Source: an uncultured Pseudomonadota bacterium (GTDB taxonomy: Bacteria > Pseudomonadota > Alphaproteobacteria > Rs-D84). From it: 64,000 nt of DNA. Location: contig CADCGT010000006.1 of the NCBI GenBank assembly GCA_902801125.1, forward strand, positions 578 to 64,577, read 5' to 3'. The translations under genes and the position numbers were made by a program. The notes under the pieces were generated by a model. The model ran no database searches and was not told where the DNA came from. It worked only from the letters and a program-made list of their open reading frames with translations. Below, one piece after another: positions 513 through 48,934 of the stretch (position 1 is its first letter; each line of letters opens with the position of its first letter).

Positions 513-600
513 AACAAAAAAATTATAAAAAATTTCCGTGCGCAGTGTCAATAAAAAATTTGGGCATCCGTTTTCGGATGCCCAACTCACTAACCACTAA

Positions 601-2676
601 TTACGCCAATGCGCCAACCGACATTGTGATACGGCGAATACCGGAACTGATAGATTTTTCTTTGTTGATTTTTGCGCGAATAATTTCGCCGGTGTTATAC
701 ACATGCGTTCCACCGCACAGTTCGCACGACACATCGCCCGCGGTTATCACGCGAACCACATCACCATACTTTTCACCGAATAATGCCATCGCGCCACGTT
801 GTTTTGCCGCCTCTATCGGCATTTCTTCATGTGCGACATTCATTTTTGCGCCTATCCATTCATTGACCATATTTTCAACTGCAATCTTTTCTTGGTCCGT
901 CATTGCGCGCCCGAACGAAAAATCAAACCGCACAGAATCCGGTGCAACGCGCGAACCGCGTTGTTCTACATCGGTGTTCAAAACCTGGCGCAATGCCGCC
1001 TGTAAAAGGTGTGTCGCGGTGTGTGCACGCGCCGTCGCCGCGCGATTTTGCATATCAACAATCGTGCGCACCGTGTCACCAACCGATATTTTTTTCGCAA
1101 CCGTTCCGCGGTGTAAAACTATGCCACCGGCACGCGCGGCCTCGGTCACGGTGACGGCAACTTCGTCGCCAATTTTTATCGTGCCCATGTCGCCAACCTG
1201 GCCGCCTTGGGTGCCATAGAAATTTGTTTTATCCAACGCGATTTCAACTTCGTCACCGGCGTCGGCCGAATCTATAAATTCACCATCGCGCAGAATCGCC
1301 AAAACCGTTGATTCCAGATTTTCATCGGGCGCATATTTTGTCGCGTCTACCGTTGCCGGTAAATCGGTCCGCGATTCCCAGAATATTTTTGTGCCACGCG
1401 TGTTTGCGCGACTGCGTTCCTTTTGCGCCGACATTTCCGCCTCGAATCCGGGGACATCGACATCTATATTTTTTTCGCGCAGAATCATTTGCGTCAAATC
1501 CAACGGAAACCCGTATGTGTCAAACAATTTGAATGCCACCGCCCCCGGTAACACATTGCCGTGAATTTTTGGTAATTCATTGTCCAACAATTTCATGCCG
1601 TTGTTCAACATATCCGCAAAAGAATTTTCTTCGTTGGTAATAATTTCCACAACATGCGCCGCGTTTGTTTTTAATTCTGGGTATGCCGCACCCATTTGTT
1701 CCACCAACGCCGGATACAGGCGTGACAACAACGCACCATTGTGCCCAAGTATTTGACCATGACGCATTGCGCGACGCAAAATACGACGAATCACATATCC
1801 GCGGTCACTGTTTGATGGAATGACGCCATCGGCAATTGCGAACCCAACCGAACGCAAATGGTCGGTTATAACCTTGAAACTGGTTCGGTTTTCCGGGGTT
1901 TCGGCAACGCCCGTCACATCGGACACCGCGCGTTTAAGGTTCACAAACAAATCGGTATCATAGTTATCAATTTTTCCCTGGAGCATGGCGGCCCAACGTT
2001 CCAACCCCGCACCCGTATCGACATTCTTGTTGGGCAACGGCGTCAGGTTTCCATTCGCGTCGCGGTCATATTGCATAAAAACATCGTTCCATATTTCAAC
2101 GAAACGACCACCGTCTTCGTCGGGCGTACCCGGCATTCCGCCCGGGACATCTTTGCCAAAATCATAGAAAATTTCACTGCACGGGCCACACGGACCGGTG
2201 TCCCCGGCCGACCACCAATTATCTTTGCCCAAACGAATTGCCTCTTTGCCGGCGACTTTGCGCCAAATTGCCGCGGCTTCGTCATCCGATTCGTGCGCCG
2301 TCACAACAAGGCGCGCCGGGTCAATTCCAATAACGCGTGTCAACAAATCCCACGACATTTCAATCGCGCCTTCCTTGAAATAGTCCCCAAAAGACCAATT
2401 CCCTAACATTTCAAAGAATGTATGATGGCGACCATCGAAACCAACATCTTCTAAATCATTATGCTTGCCCCCCGCGCGAATACATTTTTGAACATCGGCC
2501 ACGCGCGGTGCCGGTGGATTTTCCAAACCCAAAAATATATTCTTCCATGGAACCATGCCGGCAACCGTGAACAGTAATGTTGGGTCATTCGGAACAAGTG
2601 ATGCCGATGGCACAATTTTATGCCCATGCGATTCAAAATAATTCAAAAAGACTTTGCGTATTTCATCATATGTCAT
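601..2676 (-). CDS. alaS: alanyl-tRNA synthetase, short form lacking the C-Ala domain
   Basis: N-terminus MTYDEIRKVFLNYFESHGHKIVPSASLVPNDPTLLF is the class II AlaRS catalytic core. Editing-domain HxxxH (HTATHLL) and CGGTH motifs are present. The protein is 691 aa and ends right after the editing domain. Confidence 0.9.
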   Translation of the reverse strand: MTYDEIRKVFLNYFESHGHKIVPSASLVPNDPTLLFTVAGMVPWKNIFLGLENPPAPRVADVQKCIRAGGKHNDLEDVGFDGRHHTFFEMLGNWSFGDYFKEGAIEMSWDLLTRVIGIDPARLVVTAHESDDEAAAIWRKVAGKEAIRLGKDNWWSAGDTGPCGPCSEIFYDFGKDVPGGMPGTPDEDGGRFVEIWNDVFMQYDRDANGNLTPLPNKNVDTGAGLERWAAMLQGKIDNYDTDLFVNLKRAVSDVTGVAETPENRTSFKVITDHLRSVGFAIADGVIPSNSDRGYVIRRILRRAMRHGQILGHNGALLSRLYPALVEQMGAAYPELKTNAAHVVEIITNEENSFADMLNNGMKLLDNELPKIHGNVLPGAVAFKLFDTYGFPLDLTQMILREKNIDVDVPGFEAEMSAQKERSRANTRGTKIFWESRTDLPATVDATKYAPDENLESTVLAILRDGEFIDSADAGDEVEIALDKTNFYGTQGGQVGDMGTIKIGDEVAVTVTEAARAGGIVLHRGTVAKKISVGDTVRTIVDMQNRAATARAHTATHLLQAALRQVLNTDVEQRGSRVAPDSVRFDFSFGRAMTDQEKIAVENMVNEWIGAKMNVAHEEMPIEAAKQRGAMALFGEKYGDVVRVITAGDVSCELCGGTHVYNTGEIIRAKINKEKSISSGIRRITMSVGALA

Positions 2677-6480: not shown

Positions 6481-6561
6481 GCCTGGTTTGGCAAAATTTG
6501 CGAATTTTATTACCCATTGTTTTTACTGTAAAAAAAATTTTTCATTTTTTGAAAAAAGTGG

Positions 6562-6567
6562 TTGACA
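6562..6567 (+). promoter_or_regulatory. candidate -35 hexamer TTGACA located just inside the putative invertible segment
   Basis: A consensus TTGACA abuts site 2, and a TAnnnT-like -10 lies across the site (TATACC) at 17-18 bp spacing. By palindrome symmetry an equivalent -10 (TACCAT on the minus strand) lies across site 1 facing the adhesin gene. Confidence 0.35.
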
Positions 6568-6588
6568 ATAAACCTAGGTTTTTTCTAT
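6564..6588. promoter_or_regulatory. hix/gix-like crossover site 2 (AATAAACCTAGGTTTTTTCTATA)
   Basis: Second copy of the AAACCTAGGTTT core, 107 bp centre-to-centre from site 1, immediately upstream of the recombinase gene. Confidence 0.55.
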
Positions 6589-6695
6589 ACCCCTTGAAAA
6601 CCGTCAACCCCGGTACTACATTGTGTTTGAAGTATGGGCGCCGTTTTTTTCGGTGCCTGTTTTTTTATAAATTACAGCATAAAAAGGAAACTATC

Positions 6696-7298
6696 ATGAT
6701 TTATGGTTATTGCCGCGTTTCAACCACGCATCAACACGAAGAAAACCAGCATTTTGTAATAGAAAAATTCGCACGAAAAAATAATTTGACGGTTGATATG
6801 TGGATAGAAGAAAAAATTTCAAGCGGAAAAAGATTAAAAGACCGCAAATTGGGCGCACTGTTAAACGAATTGAAATCTGGCGATATACTTATCACAACCG
6901 AAATATCCCGCCTTGGGCGCAGTTTGTTGGAAGTAATGGGAATTTTACAGATGTGCCTTGAACGCGATTGCCAGGTATGGACACTTAAAGAAAATTTTAG
7001 GCTTGGGACCGATATTCAATCAAAAGTTTTGGCGTTCGCGTTCGGACTGTCGGCGGAATTGTCGCGGTCACTGTTGCGGGAACGGGTGCGCGAAAGCCTT
7101 GCGCGGTTAAAGGCGGGTGGTAAAAAACTTGGCCGGCCAATCGGCGCACAATCGCGCGTATTAAAACTTACCAGGAATCAAAAGCGCGTCGCCCTGTTGA
7201 TGGCCCAAGGCGTAACAAAAACCGAAATCGCACGAATTATGCGTGTGCACAAGGTCACACTTTATAAATACCTAAGGAGCATGGGCCTTATGGAATAA
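6696..7298 (+). CDS. serine recombinase, DNA invertase/resolvase family (Hin/Gin/Pin-like)
   Basis: MIYGYCRVSTTHQ carries the catalytic Ser in the YxRVST motif. About 200 aa with a C-terminal HTH (GVTKTEIARIMRVHKVTLYKYL). Start chosen at the internal ATG 6696 of ORF 6498..7298. Confidence 0.85.
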   Translation: MIYGYCRVSTTHQHEENQHFVIEKFARKNNLTVDMWIEEKISSGKRLKDRKLGALLNELKSGDILITTEISRLGRSLLEVMGILQMCLERDCQVWTLKENFRLGTDIQSKVLAFAFGLSAELSRSLLRERVRESLARLKAGGKKLGRPIGAQSRVLKLTRNQKRVALLMAQGVTKTEIARIMRVHKVTLYKYLRSMGLME

Positions 7299-13815: not shown

Positions 13816-13907
13816 TTTTTTCTCCCATTGTTGCTTTGTCATAATTGACGATACCATTATACCGCGCACGTGGCATGCATACAATACGAACAAATACCTA
13901 TTAGTGG

Positions 13908-13967
13908 TTAGTGTTAGTGGTTTCTGGAATCAATTGCAAAATTATTCCAGATTTTACTAACCACTAA
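13908..13967. repeat. copy of composite palindromic repeat (heptad arms plus CTGGAAT/ATTCCAG core), lacking the hairpin module
   Basis: TTAGTGGTTAGTGTTAGTGG ... CTGGAATcaattgcaaaattATTCCAG ... ACTAACCACTAA; the arms are reverse complements of each other. Confidence 0.7.
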
Positions 13968-13993
13968 AAAAACGCCCGATTGGGCGTTTTGAA

Positions 13994-14200
13994 TTAGAAT
14001 CCGAAAACCATTCTTTGCTTTGATTGACGTTTCTTTTCGTTGCGAACGGCTTCTTCTTTTAAACGTTTGCGTTTTGTTGTTGGTTTTTCATAACGCTGGC
14101 GTTCTTTCATTTCACGATACAGTCCTTCTTTTTGGGACTTGCGTTTTGCGACGCGCAATGCCTGTTCGACGTTGTTATCACGAACCAGAACCTTTACCAT
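13994..14200 (-). CDS. rpsU: 30S ribosomal protein S21
   Basis: [21 protein letters not shown]...[15 protein letters not shown] matches the S21 pattern. A terminator hairpin ACGCCCGATTGGGCGT lies downstream on the minus strand. Confidence 0.85.
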
Positions 14201-14404: not shown

Positions 14405-14502
14405 GAACTCTGTGACGCGTATTTTATGTGTTTTTTATGCGAAAGTCAATAAAAAAATAAATGCTTTACACGCCCACGCCGAGTTTCTATAATCACCATG
14501 CT

Positions 14503-16299
14503 ATGAAAAAAATTATAAACAAAGTTAAGAACTTTATTCACGGTGACGCGTCAAACGCGCGCATCAAATGGTCGCTTTATGGTCGCATCTGGCGCGAAGT
14601 GGGAAAACCCCAATGGAAATGGTTGACGGCGGGTATTATCGCAACCATCTGTGCCGCCGGCGCCGAAGGTTATACTATAACCCTTGTTCAACGCGTTGTA
14701 GACCAGGCGTTTATCGAAAAAAATATGGATTCCACATATATAATCGGTTTGCTGATTATATTGGCGTTCGGATTAAAGGGCGCGTTTGGATATGCGCGTT
14801 CGCTGCTTATGGCCAAGGCGGGACTTACCGCATCGGCCAACCTGCAAAAGCGGATTTATGCACACATGATGCATATGGATGTTTCGGGATTCTATGGGAA
14901 TGGAATCGGAAAATATTTGAATTATTTTAGTGTCCAGGCCGGCGCGGTCTTGAATTTGGTGACGGGGACCATTGTTTCAACCGTGCAACAGATTGCGACA
15001 TTGATTATCACATTGGGCCTTATGATTTATTATGCGCCACAATTGTGTGCAATTTTGGTGTTTTTGGTGCCGGGTCTTATGATACCTATGGTTGCGATTA
15101 TGCGTAAACGTCGGAAACTGTCGCGGCAATCTTTCGGCATTGCAAACAATGTGGCCCAGCAAATAAACCAAACTCTGCGCGGGATGAAGACGATTCAGGC
15201 GTTTTCTAATCAAAAGGCCGAAATTAAACGGTTCGAACGTGTATTGAATGATTCAATCGTCAATTCGTATAAAAGCACCCAGGCCAACGGTCTGCGTTCC
15301 CCGTTGATGGAAATGGTGATTTCAATCGGGCTGTGCCTGGCCATGATTTTGGGTGGGCATTTTATTGTAAGTGGCGCAATCACAACCGGTGATTTTACGG
15401 CGTTTTTGTTGGCTATGACCGCGGCGTATAAACCCGCCAAGGCGATAACCGGCGTTGGTGATACGGTTCAGCATGGATTGCTTGCGGCGGAAATTTTGTT
15501 TGATTTCTTGGACACAAAGCCAACAATTCGCGATACGCGCGATGCAATTGAACTGCGTGCGGTGCAACCGTCGGTGGAATTCAAGAATGTTGATTTTGCC
15601 TATGTTCCCGAAGAACCGGTTTTGCGCGGTATCAACCTGCGCGTGCCGGCGGGCCGGGTTTGCGCCTTGGTCGGGCCAAGTGGCGGCGGTAAAACCACTA
15701 TGTTTAATTTGCTGGAACGGTTTTACGAACCCCAGAATGGAATTATCGCAATAAATGGACGCGACATACGGAAATACACTATTGATTCACTGCGCAGGAA
15801 TATCGCAGAGGTTTCCCAAGATGTATTCTTGTTCAATGATACGATAGAGGCGAACATAAAATATGGCGCGCCGAATGCAACACACGAAGCGGTTGTTGCC
15901 GCCGCGACGGCCGCAAACGCGCATGATTTTATTATGGAATTTCCAAACGGGTATGAATCGCGCGTTGGCGAAGGCGGGGCGTTGCTGTCGGGTGGACAAA
16001 AGCAACGTATCGCAATCGCGCGCGCAATATTAAAAGATGCGCCCATACTGTTATTGGACGAGGCGACATCCGCCCTGGATAGCGAAAGCGAGAAATTGAT
16101 TCAGATGGCATTGCAAGACCTGATGCGGGGACGCACGACGTTCGTGATTGCACACCGTTTGTCGACAATTTTGGATGCAGATATAATCTGTGTTATCAAG
16201 AACGGCCATATCATAGAGCAAGGAACCGACGCAGAATTGGTGGCATTGGACGGTGAGTATAAAAAACTGCGCGATATTCAAATCAAATCCAAGAAGTGA
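14503..16299 (+). CDS. msbA: ABC transporter, fused permease/ATPase (MsbA-like lipid exporter)
   Basis: Six N-terminal TM helices. Walker A GPSGGGKTT, signature LSGGQKQRIAIARA, Walker B ILLLDEATSALD. Confidence 0.8.
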   Translation: MKKIINKVKNFIHGDASNARIKWSLYGRIWREVGKPQWKWLTAGIIATICAAGAEGYTITLVQRVVDQAFIEKNMDSTYIIGLLIILAFGLKGAFGYARSLLMAKAGLTASANLQKRIYAHMMHMDVSGFYGNGIGKYLNYFSVQAGAVLNLVTGTIVSTVQQIATLIITLGLMIYYAPQLCAILVFLVPGLMIPMVAIMRKRRKLSRQSFGIANNVAQQINQTLRGMKTIQAFSNQKAEIKRFERVLNDSIVNSYKSTQANGLRSPLMEMVISIGLCLAMILGGHFIVSGAITTGDFTAFLLAMTAAYKPAKAITGVGDTVQHGLLAAEILFDFLDTKPTIRDTRDAIELRAVQPSVEFKNVDFAYVPEEPVLRGINLRVPAGRVCALVGPSGGGKTTMFNLLERFYEPQNGIIAINGRDIRKYTIDSLRRNIAEVSQDVFLFNDTIEANIKYGAPNATHEAVVAAATAANAHDFIMEFPNGYESRVGEGGALLSGGQKQRIAIARAILKDAPILLLDEATSALDSESEKLIQMALQDLMRGRTTFVIAHRLSTILDADIICVIKNGHIIEQGTDAELVALDGEYKKLRDIQIKSKK

Positions 16300-16302
16300 T
16301 TA

Positions 16303-16361
16303 TCCGTCCCGGCACCGTTGGTGCCGCGGCCGCGATAGGTGTTAGTGGTTAGTGGTTAGTG
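16303..16361. repeat. repeat copy: hairpin module plus GTTAGTG heptad arm, immediately after the msbA stop
   Basis: TCCGTCCCGGCACCGTTGGTGCCGCGGCCGCGATAGG followed by GTTAGTGGTTAGTGGTTAGTG. Near-identical to 20921..20985. Confidence 0.75.
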
Positions 16362-16396
16362 AAAATAAAAACCGACACAAGGTCGGTTTTGATTTT

Positions 16397-16472
16397 TGGT
16401 GGGGCCACAGGGACTCGAACCCTGGACCCAATGATTAAAAGTCATTTGCTCTACCAACTGAGCTATAGCCCC
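16397..16472 (-). tRNA. tRNA-Lys (anticodon UUU), CCA encoded
   Basis: Reverse complement is GGGGCTATAGCTCAGTTGGTAGAGCAAATGACTTTTAATCATTGGGTCCAGGGTTCGAGTCCCTGTGGCCCCACCA. Anticodon loop CTTTTAA. Confidence 0.9.
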
Positions 16473-19652: not shown

Positions 19653-20912
19653 ATGTATATTATGGCCTTGAACTGTGGTTCGTCCAGTTTGAAATATCAA
19701 ATCTTTGATGCGGATTCTAAAAAACAAATTGTCGGCGGGAATGTCGAAAAAATCGGGTCGCCGGATTCTTTTATCACCCAGAAATACCCCGATGGAACCA
19801 AGCAAAAGAAAGAAACATCTATGAAAGACCATAACGAGGCATTGAATGTTGTTATGGGTATGCTGCGCGCGGCTTCTATTGACATGAATGAAATTCGTGG
19901 TGTTGGTCATCGCGTGGTTATGGGCGGTTCAAAATTCGCGTCTTCGGTGGAAATAAATAACGATGTTATGCGCGAAATTGAAAAGTGGCGCAATTTGATG
20001 CCGTTGCATATTCCGGCATCCCTTATGGGTATCGAAAGTGCGCGTCAAATGTTGCCAAACGCGACCCAGGTTGCCGTGTTTGATACCGCATTTATGCAGA
20101 CTATGCCAGAATACGCGTATCGATATGCGGTGCCGGATGCGTGGTATCGCAATTTGGGCGTGCGCCGCTATGGTTTCCACGGAACAAGCCACCTGTACGT
20201 ATCAAAGCGCGCGGCGGTGATGTTGGGCAAACCGGCGTCTGAATGTAATTTGATTACTATGCACATTGGTTCGGGTGCGTCGGGCGTCGCAATTAAAAAC
20301 GGCGTTGCGGTTGATACCACTTTGGGTATGACGCCGACCGCGGGGCTTATGATGGGAACACGGCCGGGCGATGTTGATGCGGGCGCGTTGCTTTATGTCA
20401 TGGAACAATTGAATTTGACCCCGGAACAAATGACAAAACATTTAAACAAAGATTCGGGGCACCTTGGGATTACAAAGTGCTTTGCGGACCGTCGCGATGT
20501 TGAAGAAAACCGCGAATCCAATCCAGACTGTAAATTGGCCTTGGAAATGGAGGTTCACACCGTCAAGAAATACATCGGTGCATTTATGGCCGAACTGGGG
20601 CATGTTGATGCGTTGGTCTTTACGGCGGGCGTTGGCGAAAACGATGATTACCTGCGCGGGCAATTCTGTTCGGGGTTGGAAGAATTGGGTATCAAATTGG
20701 ATGCCGAGAAAAACAAAAAGGCATTGGCGCGCCTTGATGCCGGCGAATGTGAAATTTCCACACCGGATTCCCGCGTGAAAGTATTTATGATTCCAACAAA
20801 CGAAGAAATCGTTATCGTGGAAGATACGTTGGGCATTATGAATAAAACCTATGATGCGAATCACCTTAAAATGAACTATTCTTTTGCGAAAATGAACGAC
20901 AAACAGAGATAG
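19653..20912 (+). CDS. ackA: acetate kinase
   Basis: ALNCGSSSLKYQIF N-terminus, the HLG...S motif and the overall ASKHA pattern. Confidence 0.9.
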   Translation: MYIMALNCGSSSLKYQIFDADSKKQIVGGNVEKIGSPDSFITQKYPDGTKQKKETSMKDHNEALNVVMGMLRAASIDMNEIRGVGHRVVMGGSKFASSVEINNDVMREIEKWRNLMPLHIPASLMGIESARQMLPNATQVAVFDTAFMQTMPEYAYRYAVPDAWYRNLGVRRYGFHGTSHLYVSKRAAVMLGKPASECNLITMHIGSGASGVAIKNGVAVDTTLGMTPTAGLMMGTRPGDVDAGALLYVMEQLNLTPEQMTKHLNKDSGHLGITKCFADRRDVEENRESNPDCKLALEMEVHTVKKYIGAFMAELGHVDALVFTAGVGENDDYLRGQFCSGLEELGIKLDAEKNKKALARLDAGECEISTPDSRVKVFMIPTNEEIVIVEDTLGIMNKTYDANHLKMNYSFAKMNDKQR

Positions 20913-21058
20913 TTGTTAGTCCGTCCCGGCACCGTTGGTGCCGCGGCCGCGACGGGTGTTAGTGTAAGTGGATAGTGGTTAGTGGGGTTTGGAATTAGTT
21001 TGTGATTATGAACTTATTCCAGAAATCACTAGCCACTAACACTATCTACTAATCACTG
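20913..21058. repeat. full-length composite palindromic repeat (hairpin module, heptad arm, core IR, complementary heptad arm), immediately after the ackA stop
   Basis: TCCGTCCCGGCACCGTTGGTGCCGCGGCCGCGACGGG; GTTAGTGTAAGTGGATAGTGGTTAGTGG; TTGGAAT...ATTCCAG; TCACTAGCCACTAACACTATCTACTAATCACTG. Confidence 0.75.
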
Positions 21059-21060
21059 TT

Positions 21061-21229
21061 TTTCCCTTGTGTTTTTGATAAAAACCGTGTATCATTTGCG
21101 ATGTGGTGCGGTTGGTATGCACCGCGAAAGTCCCGCAATCACTGATTCACTGCAAATAAAGTTATTTAACTTTATTCGTAATGGAATCACGTGATTGCGG
21201 AAATGTTAAATACAAAAAAAGGATTATAA
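21061..21229 (+). promoter_or_regulatory. structured 5' leader of rnj (nested inverted repeats)
   Basis: CCGCAATCAC ... GTGATTGCGG, a 10-bp long-range pair, encloses AATAAAGTTA/TAACTTTATT, and CACCGCG lies upstream. Confidence 0.4.
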
Positions 21230-23068
21230 ATGGTTAAATTACACAAACATGTCGAACCGGAACCGGTCGACGAAATTGATATTGACACGGCGGACGAAGA
21301 ATTGTCCGTGCATGTCGCCGCCGATAAATCGGCGCGCCCCGCAAAACACACGGACCCGGAATCAGACAAAAATGATGACAAGGTTTATTTTATGGCCCTT
21401 GGCGGGTTGGAACACGTCGGGCAAAATATGTACCTTTATAAATACAAAGGTAAGTTTTTGGTCGTTGATTGCGGGATGGGTTTCTTGGAAGAAGAAATCG
21501 GTGCGGGCGATGTGCAATACTGTGATACGACCTGGCTTGAAAAGCGCAAGAAAGATGTTGTCGCGTTCGTCATAACGCATGGACACGAAGACCATATTGG
21601 CGCATTGAAATACATTTGGCCAAAGTTCCGTAAACCGATTTACTGCACACGATTCCCGGCGGAAATTTTGCGCAAGACTTTCCGTGGAATCGAACTGGAT
21701 TTCGACCCAAAGAAAGACATTGTGGAATTTGACGCGGCGGGCGCAACACTTGATTTGAAACCGTTTACGGTTGAAACTTTCCATGTAAGCCATTCTGTGC
21801 CCGAGGCCCAGATGCTTATCATCAAAACCGGCGCGGGAAAAATTCTGCACACGGGTGATTGGACATTTAACGATGACAACCCGATTGAACCAGGAACCGA
21901 TTATGCGCGGTTGCGTGAAATTGGTTCAGACCCAAAATTGTTGGCGTGCGCGTGCGATTCAACTTCGTCGGCGCGTCAAACGGTTCAAACGACCGAGGTT
22001 CAAGTGCGTGATACACTGACCCAGATTATGCGTGATGCGCCGGGACGTGTTATCATTACCGGTTATTCGCGAAGCCTGGCACGCATGAAAATGTTTGCCG
22101 ATGCCGCACATGCCGCCGGGCGCGTGGCCGCAATCAAAGAACGCAGTAATCCAAACCCGGTGCCGTATGTCGGATTGCCGGAATTCCGTGAAATGGGAAT
22201 TGAATTTGGTTATTTAAAGGCGGATGATGTGTACCTGCATTCCGAGATAAAAGATTTGCCCGCCGAAAAACAGGCGATATTCCTTACCGGGTCCCAGGGC
22301 GAAAAGTTCGCGATGCTGACCCGCCTGTGCCGGGGGCAAGTTAAAGAATTGAAACTTATGCCGACGGATACCGTGGTGTTCAGTTCTATTATTATTCCCG
22401 GCCGCGAACAGGATGTTTCATTCCTTTATAACAAATTGGCGAAAATGGGTATTCATACGCATACAATTTATGACACCGACCATGTCCACGCCAGTGGTCA
22501 CGCCGGACGCCCAGAATTTGAACGGTTCTATGACATGGTTCACCCCCAGGTTTCAATCCCAATGCACGGGGATTATATCAATGAAATGCTGAACGGGAAA
22601 ATGGCGATGGAACGCGGTGGCGCAAAGCATATGATGTTGGTGCGCAACGGTGAAATGGTCGCATTGGCCGACGGCGCAGAACCCTATGTATGTGAAACAA
22701 TTGACACAGGATTCGTTGTTATGGAGGGTGAAACCGAACGCAGTGCCAACGACCAGGTTTATAAAAACCGCAAGAAAATCGCATCTAATGGCGCAATCTT
22801 TGTGACATTGCCGGTTGATAAACGCGGTTTCCTTAAAGGCACCCCAGAGGTTTCCAGTGCAGGCATTTTTGAATCCGATACAACCGGATTTATGAAACGC
22901 CAGATTCAGATAGAAATTACCAAGGCGATTGATGCACTGTCCAAGGCCGAAAGAAAATCGCAAGATAACCTAAGCCGTGCGGTGCAAACCGCCGCGAACA
23001 AGGTGGTGCGCGCGGCACTTGGCGCGGACAAAAAACCGCAATACAGTGTGCATTTTGTTCAAAAATAA
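21230..23068 (+). CDS. rnj: ribonuclease J (metallo-beta-lactamase/beta-CASP RNase) with an acidic N-terminal extension
   Basis: HGHEDHIG motif, beta-CASP region, TGDW motif. Confidence 0.85.
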   Translation: MVKLHKHVEPEPVDEIDIDTADEELSVHVAADKSARPAKHTDPESDKNDDKVYFMALGGLEHVGQNMYLYKYKGKFLVVDCGMGFLEEEIGAGDVQYCDTTWLEKRKKDVVAFVITHGHEDHIGALKYIWPKFRKPIYCTRFPAEILRKTFRGIELDFDPKKDIVEFDAAGATLDLKPFTVETFHVSHSVPEAQMLIIKTGAGKILHTGDWTFNDDNPIEPGTDYARLREIGSDPKLLACACDSTSSARQTVQTTEVQVRDTLTQIMRDAPGRVIITGYSRSLARMKMFADAAHAAGRVAAIKERSNPNPVPYVGLPEFREMGIEFGYLKADDVYLHSEIKDLPAEKQAIFLTGSQGEKFAMLTRLCRGQVKELKLMPTDTVVFSSIIIPGREQDVSFLYNKLAKMGIHTHTIYDTDHVHASGHAGRPEFERFYDMVHPQVSIPMHGDYINEMLNGKMAMERGGAKHMMLVRNGEMVALADGAEPYVCETIDTGFVVMEGETERSANDQVYKNRKKIASNGAIFVTLPVDKRGFLKGTPEVSSAGIFESDTTGFMKRQIQIEITKAIDALSKAERKSQDNLSRAVQTAANKVVRAALGADKKPQYSVHFVQK

Positions 23069-38075: not shown

Positions 38076-38242
38076 ATTTTCTTATAATTTCTTGTCACCC
38101 GCAGAATTTCAGCAAAAATTTCCCTTTCCCCGAAAAAAACGGATGATAATTTTACCTCCCTTGTTATGTAGAAGCTTACTAAAATCGCAAAGATTGACGC
38201 AAGCATTTTTTTTGAAATTCGCATAAAAAAAATTATAAAAAA

Positions 38243-38327
38243 CTACTTCGGTGGCACATGCCACCTCGCCTCGCAACTCGCCCCTTTGCCGACAAAATCA
38301 AAAACCGCCCTTTCGGGTGTTTTTTTA
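38243..38327. repeat. left direct repeat of the tRNA-Gly-associated islet (copy of the about 110-bp unit without the tRNA-end segment)
   Basis: TACTTCGGTGGCACATGCCACCTCGCCTCGCAACTCGCCCCTTTGCCGACAAAATCAAAAACCGCCCTTTCGGG is about 97 percent identical to the units at 40941..41155. Confidence 0.75.
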
Positions 38328-40814
38328 TTGTGGTTTTCGCCCATCCCGGCCAATACTTTTGACCAATTTTTTTTGCTCTAATTTACGTGTTATTTTACTG
38401 AATAAATTTTCTTGTAATTTCTTTTTGGCGACAATAAAAGGATTTTGTTTTATTATTTTAATTCTGTGCCTTGGCAAATCAGCTATGGCGACATCTATAC
38501 CATGTATTTTGCATTTTTGTCCTTTGATTTGTTTATAAATTGGCCAACTTAATTTTATACTTTTTACATTGGTAAAATCGGCATTATGCAGTTTCAATTC
38601 GGCAACATCGCTGAAATCTAAATCACCCGATAGTTTGGCCCAGGACAAATTTACATATCCATCCTTTAAATTGAAAATTGGGTTCAAATTTGCATTTCTT
38701 AAATCGGCCCCCGTTAAAGACACAAAACATGGATAATCCGCATCATCAATATCACCCATAAACATCGCATTGGGATTAAACTTTATACCGGTAACACTGG
38801 TCAAATCGGCATAACTTAGGCGAACCACCCCTATATCACTAAAATCCCAATCACCCGCCAACACGGCCCCTTTCAGGTTCACAAACTCTTTGTCCGGGAA
38901 TATTATTTCTGTGACCTGGGTTAAATCAGCGTGCATCAAATTAAATTTTTTGACATTGCTGAAATCCCACTTACCCCCCAATTTGGCATATTCTAAATCT
39001 ATATTTTCTGAATCCGGAAATTTGATACTAGTGACCCGGGTTAAATCGGCACCTGATAATCTTACCTGTTCGCAATTGCTAAAATCCCAATTGCCCGCCA
39101 ACACGACACCATATAAATCCACAAATCCAGTATTTGGAAACTTTATGCTGTTAACCCTCGTTAAATCCGCATTTTGTAAATCTATATTATCCATATCCAT
39201 ATTGCTGAAATCCAAATCTCCGGATAATTTCGCATAAGACAAATCTATCATATTAGATCGTCGGTTAAATTTTATATCTGTGACATCGGTTAAATCGGCA
39301 CCACACAGAGTCAATAATTTTACATTGCTGAAATCTAAACCGCCCGATAATCTTGTTCTCGTAAGGTTTACTATATAACCATATGGATTAAATTTTATAC
39401 TGGATACACCGGTTAGATCTACCCCCCTTATATTTAAACTATCTACATCACTAAAATCCGGATTGCCCAACAGTTTAATTTTCGTTTCATCAAGTGTTAT
39501 TGCATCGGCATTCGGATTAAATTTTATATCTGTGACATCGGTTAAGTCGGCCTCACTCAAATCCAATGTTTTAACATTGCTGAAATCTAAACTGCCCGAT
39601 AACTTTATGGTTTTGTTTAATATGATTGACGCAGCGTTTGGATTAAACTTTATACCTGTGACATTGCACAAATCCAATTTTTTCAAAATAAGGTGTTTGA
39701 CACCGCTGAAATCCAATTCACCCGATAATTTTACACCCCGCATAGAATCAAATTGCACCTTGCGCCATGTCGACATATTTACAAATGTTATCGCCCCATC
39801 GGTAACATCCATAAATCGTTCACCATCCAATAATATGGTTTTTGTTGTCCCTTTGGCGCCGATTACCTTTATCTTTTTACCATGGATATATTTATTCAAA
39901 GCATAACACATTTCGGAGTCAGCACCCGCAACAGATATTATTTGACTGTTATCATGCGCCATATTTAAAATAAAACCATCGTAAAACAATAACTGGCTGC
40001 CATCGTCTTTAAGTTTTGTAATCGTACTGCCACTGAAATAATAATCGGGCCCAAAATAGATATTGTTTGTTTCATAATTGAATCGCACCAATTGGTCATT
40101 TACCATACGGAAATTGTCCGGCAATTGACTGTTGGTCGTATTAAATTCAACATGAAAATATTTTTTAAGCGCATCGCTTAATCCCGGAATAATATTGTCC
40201 GGGTTGTTACCAAATGTTGCATCTGGATTGGCAATCGTGTGATTATAGCGATTCTTTATTGATATAAATCCACCACTTCTGGCAATTTGAATCGATATAA
40301 CCGATGTTCCATATTCATCCTGGCGTTCAGGTTTGTCTGATGGTTGAATATGCCATTTTTTTGGTGACAATTTATCATCGCCCAACACTTCTTTTTTGAT
40401 GGCGTGTATCATATAATAGTTTATGTGCCGCTCTGGGTCACCAAAAGTGCACAATCTCTCATTTGGACGATAATACTTTTCAATAGAATTTTTTTGTTGT
40501 TCGGTTTTAACAACGAACGCCTCATAGCCGGCATCGCTTAATAATTGTAGCGGATTTTTGGTTGTTCGGGACACAGATCTTTCTTTGGACAAATAAATTT
40601 CTTGGATGACCTTGCGTAATTGTCTTGCTTCATCTGGATTTCGACCCGCAAATTCTAATATGTGCAAAATATTTGGAATGGCACATAAATCCCCATTGTG
40701 ATCTTCGTCCCCACGCATAATTTTGGCAAAAGTTTCCCCATGTTGCTTTTTTAATTTTTTGAAAATTTCTTCTGTATTTATATCGACCATTTGTGTTTTC
40801 CCTGTTGCGAACAT
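38325..40814 (-). CDS. pentapeptide-repeat protein (829 aa), AT-rich, no signal peptide; effector-like
   Basis: N-terminal 350-aa unique domain, then about a dozen about 40-aa units (...LSGxLDFSNVKxLxLxxADLTxVTxIKFNPNA...) built from A(D/N)LxX pentapeptides. Basic C-terminal tail. Confidence 0.7.
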   Translation of the reverse strand: MFATGKTQMVDINTEEIFKKLKKQHGETFAKIMRGDEDHNGDLCAIPNILHILEFAGRNPDEARQLRKVIQEIYLSKERSVSRTTKNPLQLLSDAGYEAFVVKTEQQKNSIEKYYRPNERLCTFGDPERHINYYMIHAIKKEVLGDDKLSPKKWHIQPSDKPERQDEYGTSVISIQIARSGGFISIKNRYNHTIANPDATFGNNPDNIIPGLSDALKKYFHVEFNTTNSQLPDNFRMVNDQLVRFNYETNNIYFGPDYYFSGSTITKLKDDGSQLLFYDGFILNMAHDNSQIISVAGADSEMCYALNKYIHGKKIKVIGAKGTTKTILLDGERFMDVTDGAITFVNMSTWRKVQFDSMRGVKLSGELDFSGVKHLILKKLDLCNVTGIKFNPNAASIILNKTIKLSGSLDFSNVKTLDLSEADLTDVTDIKFNPNADAITLDETKIKLLGNPDFSDVDSLNIRGVDLTGVSSIKFNPYGYIVNLTRTRLSGGLDFSNVKLLTLCGADLTDVTDIKFNRRSNMIDLSYAKLSGDLDFSNMDMDNIDLQNADLTRVNSIKFPNTGFVDLYGVVLAGNWDFSNCEQVRLSGADLTRVTSIKFPDSENIDLEYAKLGGKWDFSNVKKFNLMHADLTQVTEIIFPDKEFVNLKGAVLAGDWDFSDIGVVRLSYADLTSVTGIKFNPNAMFMGDIDDADYPCFVSLTGADLRNANLNPIFNLKDGYVNLSWAKLSGDLDFSDVAELKLHNADFTNVKSIKLSWPIYKQIKGQKCKIHGIDVAIADLPRHRIKIIKQNPFIVAKKKLQENLFSKITRKLEQKKLVKSIGRDGRKPQ

Positions 40815-40849: not shown

Positions 40850-41155
40850 TCGCCTCGCAACCCTGCGGATTCTCGCCCCTTTGCCGACAAAATTAAAAAC
40901 CGCCCTAACGGACGGTTTTAAAATTTTGGTGCGAGCAAAGTACTTCGGTGGCATATGCCACCTCGCCTCGCAACCCTGCGGGTTCTCGCCCCTTTGCCGA
41001 CAAAATCAAAAACCGCCCTTTCGGACGGTTTTAAAATTTTGGTGCGAGCAAAGTACTTCGGTGGCATATGCCACCTCGCCTCGCAACTCGCCCCTTTGCC
41101 GACAAAATCAAAAACCGCCCTTTCGGACGGTTTTAAAATTTTGGTGCGAGCAAAG
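40850..41155. repeat. tandem array (about 2.8 copies) of an about 110-bp unit adjoining the tRNA-Gly 3' end; each unit carries GGTGGCATATGCCACC (16-bp palindrome) and a copy of the tRNA 3' terminus
   Basis: Units at 40850-40940, 40941-41050 and 41051-41155 are near-identical; one has a 10-bp indel CCTGCGGGTT. Each ends TTTTGGTGCGAGCAAAG, the reverse complement of tRNA-Gly 3' CTTTGCTCGCACCA. Confidence 0.85.
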
Positions 41156-41218
41156 GGGCTCGAACCCTCGACCTCAACCTTGGCAAGGTTGCGCTCTAGC
41201 CAACTGAGCTACGCTCGC
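41142..41218 (-). tRNA. tRNA-Gly (anticodon GCC), CCA encoded
   Basis: Reverse complement is GCGAGCGTAGCTCAGTTGGCTAGAGCGCAACCTTGCCAAGGTTGAGGTCGAGGGTTCGAGCCCCTTTGCTCGCACCA. Confidence 0.85.
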
Positions 41219-48062: not shown

Positions 48063-48467
48063 TTATCTTTGATTTTCTTCGAACATTTTTTGTTTCATAT
48101 CGCTAAACTCTTTGTGTTGTTTCCTTGCATAAATACTGTCAGTATTGTAGCGAAGACGAGCAAAGCTTTCGTCCAAAATACGATCTTTTTGATAATATTT
48201 CTCTAGTCCAGGATACACATCAGGACCAACATAAATTATCACAGTATCACCCAATTGTAACCAGTCATAAAAATCACAAGTTTTAGGAACATTGTAAATT
48301 CTTTCGATACCCGTTTCGACATCATCTAACAAAAGAATTTTTTGATTTTCAATCGCCCCTATTCCGGTAATTACATTTTTATGTTCATATTTTTTACAAC
48401 CCGCCAATCCAAACAACAAAATCGTTGCAAGTGTTTTATAACCCGGACGAATTTTTAGATTTTTCAT
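48063..48467 (-). CDS. small lipoprotein, paralog 1 of 3
   Basis: MKNLKIRPGYKTLA...LAGC lipobox. Motif ETGIERIYN. Confidence 0.6.
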   Translation of the reverse strand: MKNLKIRPGYKTLATILLFGLAGCKKYEHKNVITGIGAIENQKILLLDDVETGIERIYNVPKTCDFYDWLQLGDTVIIYVGPDVYPGLEKYYQKDRILDESFARLRYNTDSIYARKQHKEFSDMKQKMFEENQR

Positions 48468-48529: not shown

Positions 48530-48934
48530 TTATTTGCTTTTTTCATCCCGTTCACGGCAAAGCTTTTGCCATTCGTATTCAAATTGTTTTGCCCATAACG
48601 TGTCTTCATAACGTTTGGTTAGGGTTTTCCGGTCGAAATACAAATCGGCATTCGTTGGGGTTAAAACCGCATGTTTATCATACGCAGGCGAAGCAAAACG
48701 CACGGTATCACCAACCATGAAATAAGGCATAATATTGTTCCGTATCCGTACCGCATGCAAGTCATTTGACATGCCTGTGGTATAAATTCTTTCAACACCA
48801 GTTTTTATGTCTTTGACACGCATACCGGTCGAACCCTTTTCCAAAATAACATTTTCATGCCGGCATGAAACAAACAACATGCCAAAAAACAAAGCAAGTG
48901 TTTTATAGCCCGGACGAATTTTTAGATTTTTCAT
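48530..48934 (-). CDS. small lipoprotein, paralog 2 of 3
   Basis: Identical N-terminus MKNLKIRPGYKTLA. FVSC lipobox. Motif IKTGVERIYT. Confidence 0.6.
   Translation of the reverse strand: MKNLKIRPGYKTLALFFGMLFVSCRHENVILEKGSTGMRVKDIKTGVERIYTTGMSNDLHAVRIRNNIMPYFMVGDTVRFASPAYDKHAVLTPTNADLYFDRKTLTKRYEDTLWAKQFEYEWQKLCRERDEKSK

Follow-up and report, generated by a model that had tools for sequence, protein, structure and literature searches.

Heptanucleotide arrays, GC-rich hairpin modules and inverted arms at gene ends of a gut alphaproteobacterial lineage: a possible mosaic of fast-turnover repeats

We analyzed a 64-kb stretch of DNA (hereafter the window, or W when compared with other loci) that lies within a 326-kb metagenome scaffold of a ruminant-gut alphaproteobacterial metagenome-assembled genome (MAG), focusing on palindromic repeats built around the heptanucleotide GTTAGTG. 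A first-pass annotation had described these repeats as a single composite element. Instead, at least three parts, each varying independently of the others, make up a mosaic: arrays of GTTAGTG heptads, GC-rich hairpin modules inserted into such arrays, and an AT-rich core enclosed by inverted arms. The parts have a definite anatomy, are polymorphic between strains and are shared across loci and genera, and the GC-rich modules enter the heptad at one fixed phase. On the basis of these results, we give a probability of about 50% to the reading that, in a gut alphaproteobacterial lineage, small, non-coding, fast-turnover DNAs have colonized the stretch from stop codon to terminator.

According to this reading, GTTAGTG arrays would lengthen and shorten through slippage. 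Because TAG is part of each unit, and TAA of its reverse complement, arrays can persist only outside coding sequence, where they may abut or even supply a stop codon. The second part, an arm-core-arm hairpin of ∼100 nt with an AT-rich TGGAAT…ATTCCA core, would resemble a miniature non-autonomous mobile or recombining element, with an interior that could be inverted or exchanged and may carry a terminator. The third part would be GC-rich modules (types A-D), similar to repetitive extragenic palindromes (REPs), that insert at one heptad phase. Spread might occur by transposition, possibly of a single-strand HUH/Y1-like type for the GC-rich modules, and/or by gene conversion through the arms. The elements would place hairpins at transcript 3' ends, and a benefit to the cell, if any, would be secondary to selfish or neutral persistence.

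The 14-mer GTTAGTGGTTAGTG, searched throughout the window with up to two mismatches, gave nine matches compared with 0.22 expected, all of them within four intergenic sites (588-601, 13900-13968, 16341-16361 and 20958-21046), which confirms the four occurrences that had been pointed out before. The 64 kb contains ten exact GTTAGTG heptamers, and all but one are located there as well. Tandem Repeats Finder (TRF) reported period-7 arrays at 13901, 16341 and 20958 and elsewhere in the window only a two-unit CAATTAT repeat; head-to-tail 7-nt units above chance, as in heptanucleotide long simple sequence repeats (SSRs), are thus present. The sites and the genes next to them are listed below in window coordinates; genes were identified by Pfam matches on the same contigs together with ARAGORN for tRNAs, and L-numbers are labels of compared loci or contigs.

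601-2676, minus strand: alaS (Pfam)
588-603, minus strand: alaS stop codon TAA (601-603) fused to heptads ATTAGTG GTTAGTG, filling the stop-to-terminator spacer; relatives have an unrelated spacer
562-583, minus strand: intrinsic terminator of alaS, GGGCATCC-N6-GGATGCCC followed by a T-run (context, outside the repeat)
13994-14200, minus strand: rpsU (Pfam), adjoined by the DUF378 gene
13900-13919, plus strand: left arm in the rpsU-DUF378 spacer, ATTAGTG GTTAGTG TTAGTG
13920-13954, no strand: AT-rich core hairpin CTGGAAT…ATTCCAG in the same spacer, inverted relative to strains L254/L255
13955-13968, minus strand: right arm TACTAAC CACTAA in the same spacer, equal to two heptads that are direct in L254 and inverted here with the core
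14461-16299: ABC exporter gene (msbA-like; Pfam), followed by tRNA-Lys
16300-16340, plus strand: TTA linker and GC-rich hairpin module A (TCCGTCCCGGCACCGTTGGTGCCGCGGCCGCGATAGGT), directly 3' of the msbA-like TGA stop (16297-16299)
16341-16361, plus strand: three perfect GTTAGTG heptads at the msbA site (five in L254/L255), with a terminator next to them (16368-16390)
19653-20912: ackA (Pfam), followed by the RNase J gene (rnj)
20910-20919, plus strand: ackA stop codon TAG within degenerate heptads GATAGTT GTTAG
20920-20957, plus strand: second copy of module A, missing from L255/L256 of the same species
20958-20985, plus strand: ackA left arm GTTAGTG TAAGTG GATAGTG GTTAGTG, 26/26 identical to the left arm of L042
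20986-21026, no strand: ackA core hairpin TGGAAT-N20-ATTCCA, 30/42 identical to the rpsU-site core of L254
21027-21058, minus strand: ackA right arm CACTAGC CACTAAC ACTATC TACTAAT CACTG; together with the core end, 89% identical over 37 nt to L042
21059-21078, plus strand: U-rich tail TTTTTCCCTTGTGTTTTTG after the long ackA hairpin, in a flank conserved in all relatives, including element-free ones

At the alaS, msbA and ackA sites, GTTAGTG is on the mRNA strand between the stop codon and an intrinsic terminator or U-run. A position directly 3' of coding regions, as claimed in the first-pass annotation, therefore holds for these three sites but not for the 13900-13968 copy, which is located between the rpsU terminator (13969-13990) and the DUF378 promoter. 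Two further details had to be corrected. The alaS fragment, placed earlier at 577-598, occupies 588-601, where the TAA stop is partly contained in its first unit. The full element does directly follow the ackA stop, but the TAG stop itself lies within a degenerate heptad (GATAGTT GTTAGTC). In total, there are two arm-core-arm copies and two solo arrays per 64 kb, and zero in a further 17 kb. An origin by chance or assembly artefact could be ruled out, since the locus is identical across three independent assemblies.

Orthologous loci were obtained via AckA and S21 protein variants; the close AckA homologues carry the label 'Alphaproteobacteria bacterium' and come from MAGs. A comparison of this kind had been proposed as a check, and it revealed both presence/absence and structural polymorphism. 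W, L254 and L255 are one species, with flanks 98-99% identical. First, unit number differs between close strains, as it does in SSRs: the msbA array has three heptads in W versus five in L254/L255, and the ackA left arm has four, three or five. Second, the ackA spacer of W and L254 consists of module A, arm, TGGAAT core and arm, in this order, whereas that of L255/L256 lacks module A and has five heptads on the left and four on the right, the arms enclosing an unrelated interior of 77 nt that includes a canonical terminator. The AckA protein is identical in L254 and L255/L256 despite these differing spacers. Third, the rpsU spacer of L254 contains five direct heptads and then the core, whereas W contains three heptads followed by an inverted block of the core and two heptads; the two cores match at 35 of 35 positions, and only when that of W is reverse-complemented.

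In more distant relatives (∼82% identity), ackA and alaS are followed by ordinary spacers with plain terminators, the two sites being empty in L252, L260 and L264, so that presence/absence at orthologous sites is similar to that of miniature inverted-repeat transposable elements (MITEs). At msbA, L252 and L264 possess a heptad array without module A, so that the array must be the older part and module A was inserted later. In L247, a strain related to W, four heptads lie between the stop codon and the terminator of the TK gene, with the stop codon inside the first unit (GATAGTG); this site is empty in L246, and the W genome has no heptads there. As a separate observation downstream of msbA, the segment with tRNA-Lys and a bidirectional terminator is inverted between the window (16368-16472) and L124 (520-645), a relative in which a promoter and then the tRNA come after msbA on the same strand.

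The GC-rich modules comprise at least four types (A-D) of 32-38 nt. The hairpin core of module A, CCGGCACCGTTGGTGCCG, occurs exactly at 16309 and 20926 and nowhere else in the window, and the two copies of this 38-nt module lie in a shared block of 45 nt at 96% identity, in agreement with the earlier statement that 16303-16361 and the full element have a hairpin module in common. The predicted stem of module A is nested and consists of GC pairs only (CCGTC/GACGG outside, GGCACC/GGTGCC inside), with GTT as its loop; a CCA tail is missing. Modules A, C and D start with TCCGTC, for which the predicted pairing partner is a 3' GACGG. The 5' junction, TTA(G)↓T(C/T)C…, is common to all module copies, and the insertion phase within the heptad is fixed (TTA(G)↓T…GG↓GT) with no evident target duplication. 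The clearest case is a single filled/empty pair at the rpsU site, in which L255, compared with L254, has a clean type D insert of 35 nt between GTTAG and TG, without duplication. Module D is found after ackA in L124 and in the rpsU spacer in L255, the two copies agreeing at 35 of 36 positions. Modules A, B and C, strung between GTTAGT units and flanked by heptad arrays, occur in two metagenome contigs (L219 and L225), with module B in four tandem copies at a 40-nt period. These two contigs were the only true family members in a metagenome scan with the 18-mer hairpin core, the other matches being chance occurrences in high-GC coding DNA. Contig L123 ends within module A, as would be expected if module A is a dispersed repeat. 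With L247, L042 and L255, L219 and L225 provide the additional copies outside the window that had been looked for. In addition, the post-ackA spacer of L124 (4243-5150) is enlarged to ∼900 bp and filled with nested GC-rich palindromes, including the hairpin repeats CCCCGTGGAACGGGG and CCCTTTCCCTGGGAAAGGG, which suggests that the lineage hosts further repeat families.

Sharing beyond the species was found in a Candidatus Enterousia MAG (L042), which represents a separate alphaproteobacterial genus. Its element is flanked by genes for an IHF/HU-like protein and an M13 peptidase, at a locus non-orthologous to ackA. Nevertheless, its left arm is identical to W 20958-20983 at 26 of 26 positions, with the variant units in the same order, and its right side (ATTCCAGAAA plus arm) agrees at 33 of 37. 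Such sharing at non-orthologous loci favors a discrete spreading element over local slippage alone. The L042 element also has an additional internal terminator. Scans of viral contigs gave no match to the specific 26-nt arm or the core/arm junction. The ackA core of W and the rpsU-site core of L254 are identical at 30 of 42 positions; the core pattern was not found in any other fetched locus.

The TGGAAT-N-ATTCCA core occurs twice in the window (13925-13949 and 20990-21021), and both copies are predicted to fold strongly. The ackA element would form the GC-rich hairpin and one long imperfect arm-core-arm hairpin (-69.2 kcal/mol, z = -6.5), and the arm-core-arm of the 13900 copy reaches z = -7.0, which bears out the suggestion that the whole element can fold into a long imperfect hairpin. 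Arms of ∼30-40 nt pair in the predicted fold and are present in L042 as well, consistent with the terminal inverted repeats of MITEs. The likeness to REP- or MITE-type repeats noted in the first-pass annotation is supported. At ackA, the predicted hairpin is followed by UUUUUCCCUUGUGUUUUUG; its stem is long and rich in GU and AU pairs, and a consensus terminator scan did not call it. Apart from this hairpin and its U-run, no terminator was found between ackA and the conserved rnj leader. A terminator is always present at the ackA locus and is built differently each time: a plain hairpin in L252, one inside the arms in L255, and, probably, arm-core-arm plus U-run in W. Since the terminator is constant while its sequence varies, the W element probably supplies the ackA terminator. 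The earlier suggestion of a terminating structure is therefore plausible for the ackA copy, as judged from the modelled fold.

The relation to terminators appeared in two forms elsewhere. Solo arrays lie between stop codon and terminator at alaS, at msbA, at the TK gene of L247, in L042 and in L051, and terminators are enclosed by arm pairs in L255, L257, L042 and L002. A scan of the window at Rfam gathering thresholds yielded four tRNAs and no match to the repeat elements, and a permissive scan of 20850-21250 gave only far-sub-threshold matches to miRNA hairpins. A different structure was observed upstream of rnj (21230-23068): a hairpin leader at 21128-21210 (CCGCAATCAC…GTGATTGCGG, inner stem AATAAAGT…ACTTTATT) that has hardly changed across six relatives, the most distant at ∼82% nucleotide identity, in a spacer that otherwise turns over. 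It had no Rfam match and is a candidate cis-regulatory leader of RNase J.

Several known repeat systems resemble parts of the mosaic. Intergenic heptanucleotide repeats are a recognized bacterial class (PMC4679880, PMC4692102), and the words 'novel' and 'distinctive heptad periodicity' used at first were overstated. TAACTGA repeats occur in Beggiatoaceae, Cyanobacteria and Bacteroidetes (PMC4679880), and GGGAATC repeats of Xanthomonas and Nostoc lie at most 50 bp from stop codons on the sense strand, with occasional inverted pairs (PMC4692102). Like these and other heptanucleotide SSRs (the long SSRs of Mrazek 2007 and the STRR repeats of Calothrix), GTTAGTG forms short intergenic tandem arrays that in-frame stops restrict to gene ends and that show a patchy phylogenetic spread. 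However, it is another heptad, with stops on both strands; its inverted arms have a near-exclusive polarity, whereas TAACTGA is overwhelmingly direct; and its arrays serve as a landing pad for GC-rich hairpin inserts.

Most REPs, which are short palindromes outside genes, are located downstream of a gene. In Alphaproteobacteria, the prevailing type is tagged with CGTC (Di Nocera 2013, PMC3733652) and has no known dedicated transposase (PMC3733652). The GC-rich modules share several features with REPs, bacterial interspersed mosaic elements (BIMEs) and REP doublets forming hairpins (REPINs) (PMC3733652; Bertels and Rainey 2011, PMC3116915): they are small GC-rich extragenic palindromes between tandem or convergent open reading frames (ORFs), occur in mosaics with linker motifs and hairpin doublets, and have a short conserved 5' tag (here TTAG↓TCCGTC, containing CGTC). 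On the other hand, module A did not conform to the stem, loop and tail definitions of families CGTC-1 to CGTC-4 (PMC3733652). In the predicted fold, the module CGTC pairs with GACG at the 3' side, whereas the REP tag is unpaired, and the modules have an all-GC nested stem and a 3-nt loop in place of an 8-9 bp stem starting with A/T pairs, a 4-5 nt loop and a CCA tail. Furthermore, modules occur singly or in direct tandem (L225), in the same orientation within heptad arrays, and not as the inverted, head-to-head doublets of REPINs; no Y1_Tnp match, which the associated RAYT transposases would give, was found in the annotated genes examined. Fixed target, lack of duplication and hairpin content are the grounds on which we liken the modules to HUH/Y1 transposition and to REP biology: the fixed TTA(G)↓T junction and the duplication-free insert fit the IS200/IS605 type, with no transposase seen and one filled/empty pair to judge from.

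The arm-core-arm part has other counterparts. The Correia elements of Neisseria and the Rickettsia palindromic elements (RPEs) are ∼100-150 bp long and can form one long hairpin through their terminal inverted repeats. They are inserted at gene ends, where they may provide terminators or processing sites, and vary in presence between strains. Compared with these MITEs, the arms described here are built of heptads in variable number, no TA or other duplication was seen, and the interior is swapped or inverted between strains, with no known parent insertion sequence. The small dispersed repeats (SDRs) of Nostoc punctiforme, from the work of Elhai et al. in 2008, are reportedly hairpin-forming mobile repeats of 21-27 nt located within tandem heptameric repeats; they differ in host phylum and sequence, and the modules here are longer (32-38 nt).

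It should be noted that GTTAGTG arrays are not confined to this lineage, which again argues against a distinctive periodicity. We examined two samples, contigs of a genome collection and viral contigs; the counts given here are among the matches listed, in no known order. Arrays of 3-19 units were found in Cyanobacteria, Planctomycetota, Acidobacteriota, Chloroflexota, Victivallales, Bacteroidales, Firmicutes and others, and arrays are present in viral contigs too. Many are inverted pairs around unrelated interiors of 10-390 nt, the same layout as in the window. The order GTTAGTG…CACTAAC was strongly preferred: 28 arm pairs versus 2 in reverse order in genomes, and 27 versus 0 in viral contigs (∼20 distinct, because this sample includes near-duplicates). 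Moreover, a long ORF ended at the 5' edge of an array with GTTAGTG sense rather than antisense in 44 versus 9 cases in genomes and 43 versus 4 in viral contigs. By ORF context, 9 arm pairs were convergent, 13 tandem and 2 divergent; ORFs were called crudely, from stop to stop with at least 100 aa, and a census of gene starts and ends at array edges was unusable owing to spurious ORFs in high-GC DNA. A canonical terminator followed 9 of 115 arrays in other phyla, implying that the link to terminators is specific to the alphaproteobacterial loci.

Three heptads served as controls. GTTAGGT, which is composition-matched and likewise contains TAG/TAA, had neither the pairing polarity nor the strand bias; GTTGATG was mostly coding; and TAACTGA was mostly direct. 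The idea that GTTAGTG is uniquely common was rejected, as at least 40 triplet loci were found for it in viral contigs and at least 16, 31 and 107 for other heptads. With abundances of the same order, GTTAGTG is unusual in arrangement and not in frequency. Mismatches spared the TAG positions in viral-contig arrays, and there was no clear protection in the genome sample. We found no bacterial report of the GTTAGTG heptad in the searchable literature, and, so far as that literature shows, the polarity of GTTAGTG…CACTAAC and its sense-strand position after stops is a previously undescribed regularity. A variant arrangement was observed in viral contigs L274, L279, L289, L294, L295 and L307 (GC 64-66%), where inverted arms of GGTAGTG/GATAGTG lie between divergent genes and abut start codons or Shine-Dalgarno sequences, so that both 5' untranslated regions would read (CACUAAC)n.

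Several of these results weigh against a spreading mosaic. No Y1/HUH or DDE transposase gene, and no autonomous element with matching ends, was found in the 10 window ORFs scanned or in the Pfam-annotated flanks of the fetched loci, a survey covering ∼80 kb of the W genome. Inspection of the outer arm ends (W, L042, L255, L257 and other phyla), where repetitive arms blur the boundaries, revealed no target-site duplication of a consistent kind. Only two core-bearing copies are present in 64 kb. Because GTTAGTG arms in inverted pairs surround unrelated interiors in many phyla, the arms alone do not define a single transposon family, and some of them may have formed in place. The strong strand polarity could reflect a selected function rather than selfish spread, and the role as terminator or stabilizer is putative.

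The first of the alternative explanations is that nothing transposes. Slippage next to stop codons would create the arrays, hairpin-templated strand switching would copy them across a hairpin or terminator, and shared sequences would reflect simple-repeat convergence. Among long SSRs, those with heptanucleotide units are the most abundant class in many bacteria, with polymerase slippage proposed as their origin (PMC4679880, citing Mrazek 2007). The variable heptad number between strains, the unrelated and often ordinary terminator-containing interiors across phyla, the rpsU difference between W and L254, which is an inversion in place, and the missing transposase and target duplication in the ORFs, flanks and arm ends surveyed would all fit. 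However, convergence would hardly give W and Enterousia an arm of 26 identical positions with ordered variants (GTTAGTG-TAAGTG-GATAGTG-GTTAGT) plus a homologous core end, the copies of modules A and D at different loci and in different genomes are 97-100% identical, and symmetric slippage does not predict the near-exclusive polarity. We therefore consider an exclusively local origin unlikely.

The second alternative is selection. The heptads would then be a cis-acting signal maintained for a strand-specific effect on transcript or DNA: a TAG every 7 nt might halt ribosomes in three frames before the terminator; C-free sense (GUUAGUG)n, or G-free, C-rich antisense or read-through (CACUAAC)n, might modulate Rho loading; or the units might be sites for a heptad-reading single-strand binding protein of the cold-shock protein (CSP) or S1 type. 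The strand bias appeared in two independent samples with GTTAGGT unbiased, and the spared TAG positions in viral contigs point in the same direction. Other gut Alphaproteobacteria with identical S21 have other, likewise TAG-containing repeats after the rpsU terminator, including TAGATAA, TAGAGAA and TAGAGCA heptads and the octamer TGATAGAG:

L465, L468, L470 and L473, about 1740-1800: TAG-containing repeats downstream of rpsU

It is also known that CspB binds heptamer repeats, and a translational role was proposed for TAACTGA repeats (PMC4679880). Yet within the species arrays change in number, invert and take inserts without sign of constraint, close relatives do without them at the same genes, and TAG positions are not clearly protected in genomes. 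Arrays of 2-5 units, as seen here, are too short for a full Rho site, and the 13900 copy lies beyond a terminator. In addition, the crude ORF contexts and near-duplicate viral contigs weaken the counts, and the stop-adjacency bias follows automatically from the GTTAGTG…CACTAAC (type I) polarity together with exclusion from coding sequence. Selection of this kind is thus also improbable in our estimation; still, it is chiefly the statistics on polarity and stop adjacency that lack an explanation, and they keep a functional explanation alive.

A broader and rather speculative proposal, which we rate as doubtful, is that (G-N-TAGTG)n…(CACTA-N-C)n hairpins are a single cross-phylum intergenic class with obligatory polarity in bacteria and their viruses. 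They would owe their spread to an unrecognized machinery reading 7-nt units, or selection would maintain them as general insulators of gene ends that combine stops in six frames with strand-asymmetric C-free/G-free RNA. If so, the gut alphaproteobacterial mosaic, whose REP-like modules enter the heptad at one phase, would offer a view onto the workings of a heptad-reading machinery.

Finally, an invertible switch, in which a site-specific recombinase flips the core between inverted arms to control the neighboring genes (phase variation), is very improbable: core and two heptads are indeed inverted between same-species strains in the rpsU-DUF378 spacer, and a Hin/resolvase-type serine recombinase gene lies 6.6 kb away (6498-7298), but the likely DUF378 promoter (TTGTAT-17-TATAAT) is outside the inverted segment, the core has no promoter-like site, the second arm is missing in the L254/L255 orientation, a single inversion event was seen, and the arms are, to our knowledge, unlike known invertase sites. 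The recombinase, encoded on the plus strand, has a Resolvase N-terminal domain and a C-terminal HTH_7 domain, and its gene adjoins a YadA-anchor adhesin gene.

Other repeats were also observed in the window. A 113-nt unit is repeated 2.8 times in tandem at 40850-41177, overlapping the 3' side of tRNA-Gly (41142-41218, minus strand), and an 85-nt copy of it (94% identical) lies at 38240-38324, on the other side of ORF 38325-40814. Each unit holds a terminator-like hairpin, and the units look like duplicated tRNA-proximal segments bracketing an inserted gene. That ORF (minus strand, 829 aa) encodes a repeat-domain protein with an internal periodicity of ∼120-126 nt (8 copies, 63-87% identity). 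Two adjacent paralogous ORFs of 134 aa (48063-48467 and 48530-48934, minus strand) had no Pfam match, and their 5' regions are 91% identical over 53 nt.

The mosaic reading would explain assembly breaks and the differing 3' ends of alaS, msbA, ackA and rpsU between strains that are ∼98% identical. For annotators, it implies that repeat DNA may supply stop codons and terminators in this lineage. In kind, the elements are ordinary intergenic repeat DNA, whose within-species dynamics are unusually informative: empty site, array, array with GC-rich module, and arm-core-arm with a swapped or inverted interior would form a natural series for studying how palindromic repeats move without a visible transposase.

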